Sequence record: PP759150
Origin: Escherichia phage HH3
DNA length: 44,661 nucleotides
Direction: 5' to 3' (one strand)
The position numbers and the translations under genes are program-made. Positions 15,214 through 44,661 of the stretch are shown here, piece after piece (positions within the stretch are counted from its first letter, which is position 1; the number at the start of each line of letters is the position of its first letter). The notes under the pieces are model-generated. The model was not told where the DNA came from. It did no database searches and worked only from the letters and a program-made list of their open reading frames with translations.

Positions 15214-15936
15214 ATGGGTTATCAACTTCCTAACGGGTCCAGCGTCCAGATCGGGTCCGTACTAGGCAATGGTATCGCGGTTACGGCAGCTACCAACGCC
15301 GCTGCGTCGATCTCCGACCTTACGCAAGGTTGCGTAATTACCTGCGCGGAGTCTCACGGTCTGGTTGTTGGCGACGTTGTTATGTTCACTAAAACCCCGT
15401 GGGTCCGTGCGCTGAACCGCGCGTTCATCGTGGGTAAAGTGTCCGGGAACGACGTGACGCTGGCGCGCTTCGATACTCAAGACGCCACCAAATACCCGAC
15501 CGGTGCTTTCGGCGTAGGCACACCGGGTGAGGTCGTGAAGGTGTCGAGCTTTATCGACTTCCCGTTTATCACTAACGTTGCCGTGTCGGGTGGCGACCAG
15601 CAGACCACCACCTTCCAGCCGTTGCAGGTGAATACCGCGATCAGTCTGAACACCACGAAAAACCCGTTGGTCCAGACCTACACTTTCACCCACGACGAAG
15701 AAGACCCGATCCGCCCGATTCTGGAAGACCTGGACGACACACAGAAAACCACTGTGATTAAGTTCACTAACCCGGCAGCGGCAAGCGGCAAAGGTGAAAT
15801 CCGTATTTACCCGGCTAAGGTGTCTTTCCGCAAGATTCCGTCGGCTGAAGTAAACAACGTGGAGACGGTGGAGTCCACCCTCACTATGCAGTCCGATATG
15901 GTTATTTACCGTAAGGACTTGGTCGAGGCGCTGTAA
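15214..15936 (+). CDS. major tail (tube) protein (240 aa)
   Basis: Strong RBS aggag; position before chaperone G/GT; followed by terminator. Confidence 0.6.
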   Translation: MGYQLPNGSSVQIGSVLGNGIAVTAATNAAASISDLTQGCVITCAESHGLVVGDVVMFTKTPWVRALNRAFIVGKVSGNDVTLARFDTQDATKYPTGAFGVGTPGEVVKVSSFIDFPFITNVAVSGGDQQTTTFQPLQVNTAISLNTTKNPLVQTYTFTHDEEDPIRPILEDLDDTQKTTVIKFTNPAAASGKGEIRIYPAKVSFRKIPSAEVNNVETVESTLTMQSDMVIYRKDLVEAL

Positions 15937-15966
15937 TTTGGTCGCTTAAATAGCGGGTGTTAATAT

Positions 15967-15989
15967 GGGGCCAGTACGGCCCCTTTTTT
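15967..15989 (+). terminator. rho-independent terminator after major tail gene
   Basis: ggggcc-agtac-ggcccc followed by TTTTTT. Confidence 0.75.
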
Positions 15990-16005
15990 ATTGGAGAATT
16001 ACATA

Positions 16006-16368
16006 ATGGCTAAATCACCACTCTTCACACTTGACCCTAAACCGACCTTTAAGCTGCCGATTGAGATCCCGCGCCCTGGTGAGAACGAACCGGGCAAAAT
16101 GACGTTTACCGTGCGCCACCGCCCTATCGACGAATTTTCGCAGACCATGCAGGACACTGAGCGCAAATTGTCGGAGTATGACGACAATGACCCGGAAGGA
16201 TTTAACGTTATGGTCGAGGCCATCATGCACGTCGCTGAAGGCTGGAATTTACCGGACGAATTTAATGCGGAGAACGTCCGCCGCCTGGTGGTCAACTACC
16301 CGCGCGCGTTCGGCGTGTTCCATACTTCGTACTATCTCGAACTGATGGGATTGCGTGAAAAAAACTAA
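16006..16368 (+). CDS. tail assembly chaperone G
   Basis: Position between major tail and tape measure genes; ends 3 nt after the slippery heptamer. Confidence 0.65.
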   Translation: MAKSPLFTLDPKPTFKLPIEIPRPGENEPGKMTFTVRHRPIDEFSQTMQDTERKLSEYDDNDPEGFNVMVEAIMHVAEGWNLPDEFNAENVRRLVVNYPRAFGVFHTSYYLELMGLREKN

Positions 16369-16682
16369 TTGAGGCGGCGCGACGATTTTATGGCCCGCCG
16401 CCACCCTCAGAAGATTTAGCCGCGAGTTTATGGGGCGCGACACCGGAAGACGTGTGTCCGCCTGTTGCGCTATGGCCCGACAACGCGAAGGTAGTCGCCG
16501 TATTCACAGATTGCTCCACGCAATGGCGCACCGGATTCGGTGGCGCATACGGCATCGACTACGGCGTTTTAGAATGGCTGTTTAAGATGCACGGTATCGA
16601 AAACGCGCAACGTGCGTTTAAAGATATTAAGCTAATGGAGCGCGTTGCGCTGGATGAAATGGCACGGCAGAACCCTGCATAA
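16359..16682 (+). CDS. T extension of tail assembly chaperone GT, reached by programmed -1 frameshift
   Basis: Slippery heptamer A_AAA_AAC at 16359-16365 in G frame; the -1 frame is open from 16359 to the stop at 16682 (checked codon by codon). Confidence 0.6.
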   Translation, partial: KKLIEAARRFYGPPPPSEDLAASLWGATPEDVCPPVALWPDNAKVVAVFTDCSTQWRTGFGGAYGIDYGVLEWLFKMHGIENAQRAFKDIKLMERVALDEMARQNPA

Positions 16683-17013
16683 TGGAGCGGGACAGGCGGG
16701 ACGTCCCGCTTTGTCCCGATCTGTCCCGCCCTCTAAAAACTGCATACCTATTCAGTTTTACTGCATAACCTGAAAGCGGGACGGCGGGACGTCCCGATCT
16801 GCCCCACCCCCCCAAAATGTGAATGGTTATGCAGTTTTCGTGCATAAAACAAACGGGACAAAAAGCGGGACAGAATGGGGCGGGACAAAGCGGGACGTCC
16901 CGCCGTCCCGCTCAGTGCTGCCGCGGGTTTCAGCCGATCGGGACAGGCGGGACAAAGCCCAGTCTTTCAGACTAGACGGGGGTCATTGGCCCCCCTCGTC
17001 TGAGACTGCATAA
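16683..17013. repeat. Repeat-dense non-coding element, copy A: about 17 CGGGAC(A) units in both orientations, three GCGGGACGTCCCGC palindromes, CTGCATAA repeats, terminal long hairpin (16960-17008)
   Basis: Read directly; last 187 bp (16827-17013) are a diverged copy of 44475-44661. Confidence 0.85.
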
Positions 17014-17077
17014 GATTTGTTTTAAATTCGCTGATACAATAACCCACGGCAACTGCATAAAAAGGGGGGACTGCATA

Positions 17078-19717
17078 ATGGCAGATCAGGCAGCGGGCAT
17101 TACGCTCAAGGCGGACGTCGCGCAAATTAAAACGGCGAATACTGTGCTGGACACATTTGCGCAGAAATCCGAGAACACAGAACAGAAAGTAAAGAAATTA
17201 AACGACACCCTCGGCAACACGAAAAAGGTCACTGGTGACGCCGCGGGTGGAATGGGGAAGTTAGCGACTGAATCGCAGCGCGCCGCCGACGGCATGACGA
17301 AACAGGAGCGACTCGCCAGCCGATTAGGCATGTCGACCAAAAACCTGGGATTCGCATCGCGAAACGCCGCATTTCAGTTACAGGATATCGCGGTAACGCT
17401 TGAAATGGGTATGCCGGTGCATCGAGTCATGCTTCAGCAGCTACCACAGCTTACTGGGGCGTTTGGCGGGTTGGGTAACACACTGCGTTATTTCGTCGGC
17501 ACCCTCGGCCCGTTAGGGGTTGGCCTCGCGGCATTAACGGCAACGCTAGGCGTAGGGGTGGCAATTACGTCCCGCGCAGAAAACCAGGTAGCGGCGCTCA
17601 ACAAGACGCTGGCGCTTTCCGGTAATATTTCTGGCCTCACCGCTAACCAGATCCTGGTGCTATCCGAGAACGCCGAGCGGATGGGCGGGTCATTCCGCAA
17701 GACGCGAGACACAATTCAGTCACTGGCGGCGGCGGGTGTGAAAGCGGGTGCGGACTTCGGCGGGTTAGCTAAGGTGGTTAATGACTTTGCAAAGACGTCG
17801 GGCCAGCCTATTGAGGACGTGGTATCGTCGGTGGCGAAATTGTCAAACGACCCAGTAGGCGGTTTGCGCGCACTGGCAGATAAGTATCACGTCGTAACCG
17901 AAGCGCAGATCCAGCAGGTGCAGTCATTGGTGAACGTGGGCCGCGAGACAGATGCGGTTGCGCTGGCGAACAAAACCGCCGCGGCGTCGTTTACCACTAT
18001 GACAAACGATATCAAGGCGAACATGGGTACGCTTGAGCGGTCGATGAACGTCGTCACATCGGCAGCTAAATCCATGTGGGACGCCATCCTGGATGTGGGC
18101 CGCGCTCAGTCCTCCAATGAGTCAGAGATGAAAGCGCGTGAATCCTTGCAGCGCATGACCACGGCTTACTATGCCGAGATGAAAGCGGTACACGCTGCCG
18201 GTGGGGTAATGACTGAAGCGCAGAAAGCACGTATTAACATGCTTTACAGCGAAATGGTCGCCCAGGAAAAAGTAGTGGCGTCGCTCACCCTGCGCAACCG
18301 CGCCGAGCGAGACAACGCCCGCGCCTCGGACGAATCAGCGAAGGAGAACGAGGAGGCCAACCGCGCTGCCCGCGACCGCGCCGCATTTGAGAAGGAATTC
18401 GCCACCAACGCGAAGAGGCGCTCCGACGAGATCGCCCGCCTCAATTTGCTGAATAAGCGCGGCGTGATTAGCGAGAAAGAGCTTGCCGAGGCGGTGAAGC
18501 AGGTAAACGAGCGCTACAAAGACCCCGCCCCGAAGAAGGCCGCCTCTGTACGGGTCGATGCCGGTACGAAAATGCTGGAAGTCGCACGGAGCGAACTGGC
18601 CCAGCTTCGAGAATCCGGCAAGCAGATCGAAGCCAACGCATCTGCGCAGACCCGCACGCAACGCGCTCAAGCGGCCTTAAACAAGCTGATCGCCGACCAT
18701 GAGCAGTTAATCGCTGCGAGCAAAGAAAGAGCGCTAACGGCAGCAGAGAAGCAGCAGATGGTGGAATTTGGACGCGTGAAGGAAGTCCGCGAGCAGATCG
18801 TCGAAGAAGCCAAATTGCTGGATGCGAAAGAGAAGCAGATCAAAGCCCACGCGCAGGTAGACGCTTTCCTCAAGAATCAGAACGCCGAAATAAAGGCCAC
18901 CGCTGCGGGCTACGCACTGTCTACGCGCGAAGCGGCTAACCTGCGCGAAGAATTGCAGCTAATCGACCGTCTGAAGAGGGTTGGCGCTAACGATACCGAT
19001 ATAGACAAGGCGGTGTCTAAGCTGCGGGAAGTGCAGGAGGCGCAGACCGGTGCTAACGCCTCGCTATGGGATGGCTTCAGCCACGGGCTTAAGGATAGCG
19101 TGGATGAAATGGGTAACGGATATACGCAGATGGCGTTGCTTACGAAATTCACGTTCAGCGCTATGCAAGACACGATGAACGAGTTTTTCGAGACCGGCAA
19201 GCTGAACGCAAAGGATATGGTTAAGTCCATCCTGAGCGAATTAATCAAGCTGGCTACCTCGCAAGCGTTCAAGTCCATCGTTGGCGCTTTCGGTGGCGGC
19301 GGCAAAAACGGATTGTTCGGCGCTATCTTCTCGGGCCTCACTAAGAATGCGGACGGCGGAGCGTACGCAGGAGGCAATCTCGCGGCCTATTCGGGGAAAG
19401 TGGTAAGCCAGCCCACCTTTTTCAGTTATGGCGTCCAGGCGTTCGCTAAGGGCGCAGGATTGATGGGTGAGGCTGGCCCCGAGGCCATCATGCCACTGAA
19501 GCGCGGGCCGGACGGGAGACTGGGCGTTGCCGCTTCTGGCGCAGGCGGAGGTATGGTCGTGACGACTAACGTTTACACGGGGGCCGGTAAAACAGACACC
19601 AGTGTGAGCGGCCCAGACCCCCGCACAGCGCAGGCGTTCGGCAAGCAAATCACCGAGGCGGTGAAGGCCGAGATCGTGAAAGCGACGAAACCGGGTGGAG
19701 TACTTTACAAACGATGA
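17078..19717 (+). CDS. tail tape measure protein (879 aa)
   Basis: Size, Ala/Gly-rich helical composition, position after G/GT and before tail-tip genes. Confidence 0.85.
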   Translation: MADQAAGITLKADVAQIKTANTVLDTFAQKSENTEQKVKKLNDTLGNTKKVTGDAAGGMGKLATESQRAADGMTKQERLASRLGMSTKNLGFASRNAAFQLQDIAVTLEMGMPVHRVMLQQLPQLTGAFGGLGNTLRYFVGTLGPLGVGLAALTATLGVGVAITSRAENQVAALNKTLALSGNISGLTANQILVLSENAERMGGSFRKTRDTIQSLAAAGVKAGADFGGLAKVVNDFAKTSGQPIEDVVSSVAKLSNDPVGGLRALADKYHVVTEAQIQQVQSLVNVGRETDAVALANKTAAASFTTMTNDIKANMGTLERSMNVVTSAAKSMWDAILDVGRAQSSNESEMKARESLQRMTTAYYAEMKAVHAAGGVMTEAQKARINMLYSEMVAQEKVVASLTLRNRAERDNARASDESAKENEEANRAARDRAAFEKEFATNAKRRSDEIARLNLLNKRGVISEKELAEAVKQVNERYKDPAPKKAASVRVDAGTKMLEVARSELAQLRESGKQIEANASAQTRTQRAQAALNKLIADHEQLIAASKERALTAAEKQQMVEFGRVKEVREQIVEEAKLLDAKEKQIKAHAQVDAFLKNQNAEIKATAAGYALSTREAANLREELQLIDRLKRVGANDTDIDKAVSKLREVQEAQTGANASLWDGFSHGLKDSVDEMGNGYTQMALLTKFTFSAMQDTMNEFFETGKLNAKDMVKSILSELIKLATSQAFKSIVGAFGGGGKNGLFGAIFSGLTKNADGGAYAGGNLAAYSGKVVSQPTFFSYGVQAFAKGAGLMGEAGPEAIMPLKRGPDGRLGVAASGAGGGMVVTTNVYTGAGKTDTSVSGPDPRTAQAFGKQITEAVKAEIVKATKPGGVLYKR

Positions 19718-29623: not shown

Positions 29624-30133
29624 TTATTTAAGTGCGCCAGTCACCAGTGTTTTTTCCATGTTACGGAAATCTTCCTGCGTCATGCAGATTTTCGATCCGT
29701 CTTCACCGGTTAGCACGACCATAGGCTGGACGTCCTGGGCTACAACTCCAAAATTGGCGGCTGTAACCGTTTTACCGGGGGTAAATGCGCCGCCTGTTTT
29801 GACGGGCCAACCTTTGAGGCTATCGAATTGTGCTGCCGTTGTATCGATCTGAATCTCGTCATGCACGGTCATGTAAGACTCGCCCAGCAGGGCGGCATAC
29901 GCCACCAGATCCACGATGTTATCTTCCTGGTGCTTACGGTGCTGGCGCACCAGCTTCAGGCAGATCAGGAAGGTCCAGGCTTCTTGCTCGGTAAGGTCGC
30001 GCCCGGTAAGCGCGTTAAACACGGCAGCGATTTGTTTAGCGCTGCGTTCTTCTTTCGCGTTGTCATAGCCGTTTTCTTTCCCGCGCTGTTCCATAGTGGT
30101 GGCGGCGTTTTTGCAGTATTCGTATGCTTTCAC
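29624..30133 (-). CDS. hypothetical protein (start uncertain, GTG 30133 or ATG 30094)
   Basis: Track ORF runs to 30214 but would read through the palindromic operator and hairpin; trimmed. Confidence 0.4.
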   Translation of the reverse strand: MKAYEYCKNAATTMEQRGKENGYDNAKEERSAKQIAAVFNALTGRDLTEQEAWTFLICLKLVRQHRKHQEDNIVDLVAYAALLGESYMTVHDEIQIDTTAAQFDSLKGWPVKTGGAFTPGKTVTAANFGVVAQDVQPMVVLTGEDGSKICMTQEDFRNMEKTLVTGALK

Positions 30134-41789: not shown

Positions 41790-42119
41790 ATGAATGTAAA
41801 CGACGCAATCGAAATGTTAACGAAGACTGTTAGCAGTGAAACAAGCCGGTCCTGGGCTTATACCGATGCCGTTGGGGCGGTGTTATTTGAGGTCGAGCGC
41901 CTGCGCAGTGTAGAAAAAGAATTACGCGCCAGGCTGGAATTGCTCAACGGTACGGCGGCGAGCAAGCTACAAAAACACAATGAAGAAATGGAAGAATACA
42001 AAAAACAGGTTATCCGTTTACGTGATGAGGGGAAGTCATGGGCAATGATCGCGGAGTTGACAGGAATTAATCAGAGCACCGTGCGATCCTGGGTACGCAA
42101 TAACAAAACTTCTAAGTAA
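41790..42119 (+). CDS. HTH DNA-binding protein (109 aa), candidate transcription regulator
   Basis: C-terminal helix-turn-helix-like WAMIAELTGINQSTVRSW; first gene of the rightward early operon. Confidence 0.55.
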   Translation: MNVNDAIEMLTKTVSSETSRSWAYTDAVGAVLFEVERLRSVEKELRARLELLNGTAASKLQKHNEEMEEYKKQVIRLRDEGKSWAMIAELTGINQSTVRSWVRNNKTSK

Positions 42120-44474: not shown

Positions 44475-44661
44475 TTATGCAATAAAACTGCATAAAGTAG
44501 GCGGGACAAAAAGCGGGACAGACCAGGGGCGGGACAAAGCGGGACAGCACCCCGTCCCGCCCCGGATGACGCGGCCTGGAGAGGAGCGGGACAGCGGGAC
44601 AGCACCCCAGTCTTTCAGACTAGACGGGGGTCAACGGCCCCCCTCGTCTGAGACTGCATAA
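44475..44661. repeat. Repeat element copy B: six or more CGGGACA units plus terminal hairpin (44608-44656) ending in CTGCATAA at the window edge
   Basis: Aligns with 16827-17013 over 187 bp; hairpin arms identical and only the loop differs by two bases. Confidence 0.85.

Follow-up and report, generated by a model that had tools for sequence, protein, structure and literature searches.

The G/GT arrangement of long-tailed phages was reportedly set out by Xu, Hendrix and Duda (2004), and the gpG and gpGT proteins of lambda are said to have been studied by Levin et al. (1993) and by Xu, Hendrix and Duda (2004, 2013, 2014). In lambda, two open reading frames are located between the major tail and tape measure genes, the second of which, lying in the -1 frame, lacks a start codon of its own, and a slippery heptamer is present near the end of the first. 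Lambda needs GT and G in a ratio of about 1:30; G attaches to the tape measure protein, the T part brings in the tube protein, and both products remain outside the virion (PMC5009743).

Frameshifts in the tape measure chaperones of T1-like phages are also conserved and are mentioned in genome announcements (PMC4319613, PMC8407766). The heptamer A_AAA_AAC is the proven shift site of IS1, is common in insertion sequence elements, and in InsA/InsAB' acts at low efficiency in E. coli without an established stimulator (PMC4066793). In E. coli reporters, Sharma et al. obtained frameshifting at AAAAAAC of 0.163% without a stimulator, 0.189% with the stimulators of IS911, and 0.739% with the pseudoknot of IS3 (PMC4066793). 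A codon that is slow to decode in the ribosomal A site is a recognized class of stimulator, and the dnaX gene of E. coli, which encodes gamma and tau, combines a -1 shift on the A-rich heptamer A_AAA_AAG with an upstream Shine-Dalgarno-like element, a downstream hairpin, and very high efficiency, giving a shorter product (PMC5009743).

In the 44.6-kb stretch of Escherichia phage HH3 DNA that was analyzed (the window), we consider it probable, at roughly 0.88, that two overlapping genes, G and T, encode a tail assembly chaperone pair expressed by low-level programmed -1 ribosomal frameshifting. What the analysis shows directly is the arrangement of the sequence, the homologies, and the conservation at the nucleotide level, from which we infer the shift, how efficient it is, and what the proteins do. 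As in lambda, the two open reading frames lie between the major tail and tape measure genes, the second is in the -1 frame without its own start, the heptamer is near the end of G, and a low ratio of GT to G, with both products outside the virion, would be expected. No sequence similarity to lambda G and T was detectable by blastp (E > 0.4). The lambda proteins belong to Phage_TAC_2 (PF06894) and Phage_tail_T (PF06223), whereas those of HH3 belong to Phage_TAC_4 and DUF1799, with no Pfam match to the lambda families. The lambda heptamer, G_GGA_AAG, is located 15 nt (five codons) before the G stop, whereas A_AAA_AAC of HH3 adjoins the stop. In lambda, T and H share 8 nt, compared with a 395-nt repeat spacer after T in HH3. 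The relation to lambda G/GT would be one of arrangement and presumed function only. HH3 has the same heptamer as IS1, but the protein and function are unrelated, the IS1 site belonging to a transposable element and that of HH3 to a gene for virion assembly. With dnaX, the likeness is a -1 shift on an A-rich heptamer; the heptamer sequence, the stimulatory elements, the efficiency, and the shorter product are points of difference.

Genomic context and predicted products

Relatives were gathered by a related-locus search and by tblastn. When positions 15900 to 17200 were searched against phage records, 158 matches were obtained, 153 of which had at least 80% coverage at 80 to 93% identity, and nearly all were from Escherichia and Shigella siphophages of the genus Dhillonvirus (HK578, EC115, YD-2008.s, JL1, and others). 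Because Dhillonvirus records match this region, the window is assigned to the genome of an HK578-like (Dhillonvirus) virulent coliphage, an assignment made by nucleotide similarity over positions 15900 to 17200 only. The genes and signals around the G/T locus are as follows.

15214 to 15936, + strand: major tail (tube) protein gene, the upstream neighbor (Pfam PF08813 Phage_tail_3, E = 1.2e-32; phrog_584, major tail protein, E = 8e-74)
15967 to 15992, + strand: terminator-like GC hairpin and T run between the tube gene and G (consensus scan: six G-C pairs, 5-nt loop, then TTTTTTATTG)
15993 to 15996, + strand: GGAG, the Shine-Dalgarno sequence of G, 9 nt 5' of the ATG (sequence reading)
16006 to 16368, + strand: G, putative tail assembly (tape measure) chaperone, 120 amino acids, 14.0 kDa (translation; Pfam PF08748 Phage_TAC_4, E = 8.7e-24 over residues 1 to 120; phrog_569, E = 1e-40)
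16365 to 16682, + strand: T extension in the -1 frame, 105 amino acids plus stop (Pfam PF08809 DUF1799, E = 2.8e-21, residues 23 to 99; phrog_680, E = 3e-31; tblastn homology in the -1 frame of relatives)
17078 to 19717, + strand: tape measure protein gene, 879 amino acids (Pfam TMP_2, E = 1.9e-44, and Tape_meas_lam_C, E = 9e-13; phrog_24, E = 4e-178)

G and T (16006 to 16682) are thus located between the Phage_tail_3 gene and the TMP_2/Tape_meas_lam_C gene, the position of a G/GT pair. The product of G matched Phage_TAC_4 with 84.5 bits (curated cut-off, 21.1) over the entire profile (positions 1 to 124 of 124), and the -1 translation matched DUF1799 with 76 bits (cut-off, 26) over positions 1 to 80 of 80, in residues 23 to 99. 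The predicted GT fusion has 225 amino acids and 25.6 kDa, with the junction ...GLREKN/LIEAARRF.... One profile, phrog_17368 (213 positions), spans both parts, G matching at profile positions 1 to 107 and T at positions 150 to 212, and therefore was built from joined G-T sequences. A sequence search of the PDB returned no solved relative, the best match (E = 1.5) being an unrelated Lrp/AsnC regulator, and only three matches were returned when the fused GT was the query in a word-indexed search of proteins.

The terminator-like element between the tube gene and G (GGGGCC...GGCCCC, then TTTTTT) could make transcription into G, T, and the tape measure gene weaker than that of the tube protein. It is a chance-level pattern match, the same scan averaging 1.7 such sites in shuffled sequence. 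The HK578 record annotates a rho-independent terminator just past gp16.

The slippery site and the proposed frameshift

Read from the ATG at 16006, positions 16351 to 16368 of the G frame are TTG CGT GAA AAA AAC TAA. This confirms the claim of the initial annotation that G ends in GAA AAA AAC TAA, with A_AAA_AAC at 16359 to 16365 in the correct register. Three adjoining features define the site.

16356 to 16358, + strand: -1-frame TGA immediately 5' of the heptamer, which restricts the possible shift window to 16359 to 16368
16359 to 16365, + strand: slippery heptamer A_AAA_AAC, within the A7 run at 16358 to 16364 (X_XXY_YYZ register relative to the G frame)
16366 to 16368, + strand: G-frame stop TAA immediately 3' of the heptamer, a possible "shifty stop" (adjacency conserved in relatives)

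It was also correct that the -1 frame is open from 16359 for 107 codons to 16682. Preceded by the TGA and closed by TAA at 16680 to 16682, this frame has 108 codons including the stop, 107 of them sense. The G and T frames overlap by 10 nt only, comprising the heptamer and the stop codon, and the +1 frame closes after one codon. AAAAAAC occurs three times on the two strands of the 44.6-kb window, compared with 8.0 ± 2.7 occurrences expected from shuffles, and one of the three copies occupies, in the correct frame, the sole position that fits the 10-nt overlap. As the motif is rare in the window and is found at the one position and frame that fit, its placement is not attributable to chance. 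The remaining two copies are at 29649 to 29655 (- strand) and 42000 to 42006 (+ strand).

In the proposed mechanism, most ribosomes would translate G (16006 to 16368) and terminate at the TAA, with the 14-kDa chaperone as their product. In a minority of cases, probably below a few percent, the ribosome would shift back one base, either through slippage of tRNA-Lys and tRNA-Asn on AAA AAC or through slippage of tRNA-Asn alone in the P site while the stop codon occupies the A site. Shifted ribosomes would then read CTA ATT GAG and continue to 16682, yielding the 225-amino-acid GT with its C-terminal DUF1799 domain. By analogy with lambda, many G and few GT molecules would coat the tape measure protein (encoded at 17078 to 19717), the T domain would bring in the tube protein (encoded at 15214 to 15936), and both G and GT would be absent from the finished virion.

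The heptamer had been called canonical at the outset. The term is appropriate for eukaryotic systems but not for E. coli, in which A_AAA_AAC is a low-efficiency heptamer (PMC4066793). The reporter values for AAAAAAC are well below the few percent of lambda, which counts against the frameshift explanation that we prefer, as do the altered ending of G in Webervirus and the lack of a conserved downstream RNA structure described below. The TAA that adjoins the heptamer could have a stimulatory role as a codon decoded slowly in the A site.

Conservation of the site among relatives

The site was compared at 101 loci, consisting of 18 Dhillonvirus-like phages, one phage with 62% identity (L039), and about 80 prophages and viral contigs from Enterobacter, Klebsiella, Franconibacter, Providencia, Chromobacterium, and other hosts. 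Amino acid identity of G to that of the window ranged from 33 to 100%. The genome scan employed a pattern ending in ...REKN and was biased toward the site, whereas the peptide patterns of the viral-contig scan did not include the REKN end, so that this set was unselected for the site. AAAAAAC was kept in all 101 loci, and a stop codon (TAA or TGA) followed directly in 100 of them, the stop being two codons later in L036. Wherever homology to T was detectable, it was in the -1 frame, with a Leclercia locus (L038) as the sole apparent exception. In this prophage of Leclercia adecarboxylata NCTC13032 (L038:2680-2800), the site is kept and the frame of G is broken about 60 nt 5' of the heptamer, which points to decay of the prophage gene or to a faulty assembly.

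Conservation of the heptamer extends to the nucleotide level. A codon alignment of 93 distinct sequences contained 180 columns in which the majority amino acid is degenerate; synonymous variation was absent in just 9 of these columns, and the median share of minor codons was 22%. Three of the nine were the consecutive codons of the heptamer, GAA, AAA, and AAC, in the 93 sequences. Other columns with invariant residues (N, E, Y, F, and H) vary in codon usage, for example N90 (AAC in 61 sequences and AAT in 32), E112 (GAA in 64 and GAG in 28), and H38 (CAC in 52 and CAT in 41). A change of C16365 to T would leave both encoded amino acids unaltered (AAC to AAT and CTR to TTR) but was absent from the 93 sequences. 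The T frame shows conserved amino acids (L, I, A, F, and Y) from the first codon after the shift onward.

The ninth codon of T, TAT (16389 to 16391, Tyr), located 24 nt 3' of the heptamer, is conserved as well, with TAC absent in the 93 sequences. It is the only other fully conserved residue without synonymous variation, and its invariance could reflect chance or a constraint at the nucleotide level.

Searching the phage collection by tblastn with the fused sequence yielded 1,153 records, 807 of which covered at least 80% of the fusion, nearly always in two pieces. T1-like phages (Drexlerviridae; e.g., tinuso, IME347, Stevie, and Solomon) carry true homologues, with about 30 to 40% identity over G and T. 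G ended in GTA AAA AAC TAA in three of the four T1-like phages examined, with T in the -1 frame; the phages named with this ending are tinuso, IME347, KLB26, and vB_EcoS-12469III (about 30 to 40% identity). The stop abuts the site in four T1-like phages, three of them with A_AAA_AAC. These phages differ from HH3 in that the A run is A6 rather than A7 and in that about 40 nt, without the CGGGAC spacer, separate the end of T from the tape measure gene. Further endings of G were CGG GGA AAC TGA in Ralstonia phage YO020_1, corresponding to G_GGA_AAC, and GCA AAA AAC TGA in cyanophage S-CBS3. Because the A6 and GGGAAAC homologues share the layout, the conserved unit is an in-frame X_XXA_AAC heptamer adjoining the stop and not an A run of fixed length.

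The exception is in Webervirus, members of which have lost the heptamer. In Klebsiella phage KPN N141 (L106:265-905), the end of G is GCA AAA GTT TAA, without A_AAA_AAC; the A_AAA tetramer alone is left, although the -1 frame continues to carry T. In this branch of the family, the shift site may have changed or become weaker.

A representative search with the T part returned 1,142 clusters at E ≤ 1e-3. The best 150 of the 1,142 T representatives were all 38 to 150 amino acids in length, and no natural in-frame GT fusion was found among them. Such fusions appear to be rare or absent, which fits the need for an excess of G. Shigella phage 1b and the Dhillonvirus LF50P3, both matched by tblastn in a single piece, were considered as candidate natural in-frame fusions and were rejected, as their sequences have the A7 run and two frames.

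The start of T and alternative explanations

In the inspected GenBank records that annotate it, T is a gene of its own. Translation of T as a separate small protein would proceed by termination-reinitiation at an ATT that overlaps the G stop, as annotated for gp16 of HK578, or at the internal GTG at 16452, as annotated for Kenya-K19. In addition to the GenBank annotations, the products of gene callers are in line with this possibility, as they are stand-alone DUF1799 proteins of 65 to 150 amino acids, with no natural fusion among the 150 best representatives. However, the first in-frame ATG, GTG, or TTG of T shifts between codons 2 and 74 across the relatives, without a Shine-Dalgarno sequence in any of them, and most of these candidate starts would truncate the domain. 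In the window, the first such codon is the GTG at 16452, which has no Shine-Dalgarno sequence and would delete 29 conserved residues and part of the domain. In the HK578 RefSeq record (L001:3472-3786), the ATT shares its A with the G stop; the codon at this position is ATA in 70 of 93 relatives, and the ATT start is an annotation work-around for a missing start. T thus has no start or ribosome binding site of its own, as is characteristic of the second frame of a G/GT pair. A separate T protein is very unlikely because there is no conserved start and because the invariance of the heptamer at the nucleotide level would be left unexplained.

Annotation of T varies among the inspected records. 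T starts at the internal GTG in the Kenya-K19 record, is unannotated in that of phage "rolling," and is missing from that of Shigella phage 1b, in which G only is annotated. The inspected Dhillonvirus entries in GenBank and RefSeq present two separate genes without a join. No join annotation was present in the inspected T1-like records labeled "tape measure chaperone (x2)" or in the RefSeq record of lambda either, and the missing join is therefore uninformative. No description of a frameshift in the genus Dhillonvirus was found in the literature or in the inspected records.

A fusion of almost identical size (...REKK-LIEA...) could also arise if RNA polymerase added an extra A within the A7 run at 16358 to 16364. 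The run is uninterrupted, and AAAAAAA runs are prone to slippage and are depleted in E. coli genes (PMC4066793). However, it is the in-frame A6C heptamer that is conserved rather than the length of the run: the T1-like homologues have A6 only (GTA AAA AAC), the Ralstonia phage has GGGAAAC without an A run, and C16365 is invariant even though T at this position would extend no run and would be silent in both frames. Efficient transcriptional slippage in E. coli requires runs of about 8 to 9 or more. Given that the A6 and GGGAAAC homologues share the arrangement, transcriptional slippage has little probability as the source of the fusion.

A homopolymer sequencing error or a pseudogene, with G and T forming one continuous gene, is excluded for practical purposes because about 100 independent sequences agree: although homopolymer runs are easily miscounted and the G frame of L038 is interrupted, G and T stand in the same relative frames in 100 independent isolates, prophages, and metagenome contigs as well as in families with other heptamers, and the single-piece matches of Shigella phage 1b and LF50P3 actually have two frames.

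Programmed -1 frameshifting in a G/GT tail chaperone pair, as put forward in the initial annotation, is therefore the reading that the comparisons support, all of the computational hallmarks of such a pair (its position, the missing start of the second frame, and the conserved slippery site) being present.

RNA structure and a possible role of the stop codon

One stem-loop was predicted downstream of the heptamer.

16373 to 16402, + strand: hairpin GGCGGCG...CGCCGCC, 7 nt after the heptamer (MFE fold; of doubtful significance)

The hairpin is found throughout the Dhillonvirus clade and in L039 and is encoded by Ala-Ala and Pro-Pro codons. It was rejected as a selected stimulator, as its z-score against shuffles was 0.27 and the native folding energy was -15.5 kcal/mol versus a mean of -19.9 kcal/mol for synonymous-codon sequences, 85% of which folded as well or better. 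RNAalifold identified 0 conserved pairs in 28 diverse relatives, and hence no conserved hairpin or pseudoknot 5 to 9 nt downstream of the heptamer. The Rfam search returned no match, only sub-threshold miRNA-like matches that are due to a long palindrome in the spacer.

A broader proposal, which we regard as speculative and on balance rather unlikely, is that the Phage_TAC_4/DUF1799 family, from coliphages to a cyanophage, employs a termination-coupled "shifty stop" -1 shift at X_XXA_AAC plus stop. The weak heptamer would be boosted to the level needed for tail assembly by slow decoding of the stop in the A site and not by an RNA structure. In a variant of this proposal, the ratio of GT to G may be about 10-fold below that of lambda.

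The repeat spacer downstream of T

The initial annotation had also noted that the T stop abuts a repeat element instead of the tape measure gene. This proved accurate, as 5 nt separate the T stop from the first CGGGAC/GTCCCG copy, and the tape measure gene begins with an ATG only at 17078.

16683 to 17077, no strand assigned: noncoding spacer of 395 nt from the T stop to the tape measure start (16 CGGGAC/GTCCCG copies and 4 to 5 ACTGCATAA copies)

A 395-nt spacer ahead of the tape measure gene is atypical for a G/GT arrangement. Its 16 CGGGAC/GTCCCG copies are located at 16688 to 16953 (266 nt). The gap between T and the tape measure gene is 357 to 406 nt in Dhillonviruses and -4 or -1 nt (an overlap) in 66 prophage relatives; the CGGGAC-repeat spacer is specific to the Dhillonvirus clade. 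Long inverted repeats are also present in the spacer. Its right part (16854 to 17013) is repeated, at the same offset, at the end of the window (44502 to 44661), the two copies agreeing at 96% between 16958 to 17013 and 44606 to 44661 and at 93% between 16854 to 16896 and 44502 to 44545, and the terminal copy contributes seven further CGGGAC copies. The repeats, for which iteron would be a tentative label, may be a protein-binding array involved in regulation, replication, or packaging.

An 11-mer, CTGCATAATGG, is found both at the T stop (16675 to 16685, CCT GCA TAA TGG) and at the tape measure start (17071 to 17081, CTGCATA ATG G), 396 nt apart. The spacer looks as if it had been inserted into an ancestral TAATG stop/start overlap like that of the prophage relatives. 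At the first of the two CTGCATAATGG sites, HK578 carries no more than CCGCATAA, and the duplication may for this reason be in part a coincidence with the repeated ACTGCATAA motif.

The junction between T and the tape measure gene is an insertion hotspot in this family. In L039 (L039:3178-4004), the junction carries 11 CGGGAC copies and a reverse-strand open reading frame of 126 amino acids. Low-GC (41%) inserts are present in L032 (L032:3115-3875), with a membrane-like open reading frame of 194 amino acids, and in L021 (L021:516-1104), with a secreted-looking open reading frame of 151 amino acids. The latter two inserts look like morons.

Implications

Judged from the comparisons above, the site is a real, deeply conserved case of textbook-type recoding in a poorly annotated family. 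The frameshift layout is already known from long-tailed phages, and Dhillonvirus adds another case. The main value of the finding is in annotation. In the inspected Dhillonvirus records, those of HK578, Kenya-K19, rolling, and Shigella phage 1b, G and T are treated as unrelated genes, and T is given an ATT or internal GTG start, is called a "hypothetical protein," or is omitted. The predicted product is instead a 225-amino-acid GT fusion, a correction that could be made in hundreds of related records. The heptamer is nearly inert in E. coli reporters, yet it has been kept beside the stop codon over long evolutionary distances. The locus thus offers a convenient natural setting in which to ask how small an amount of GT suffices for a siphophage tail and whether an adjacent stop codon stimulates -1 frameshifting.
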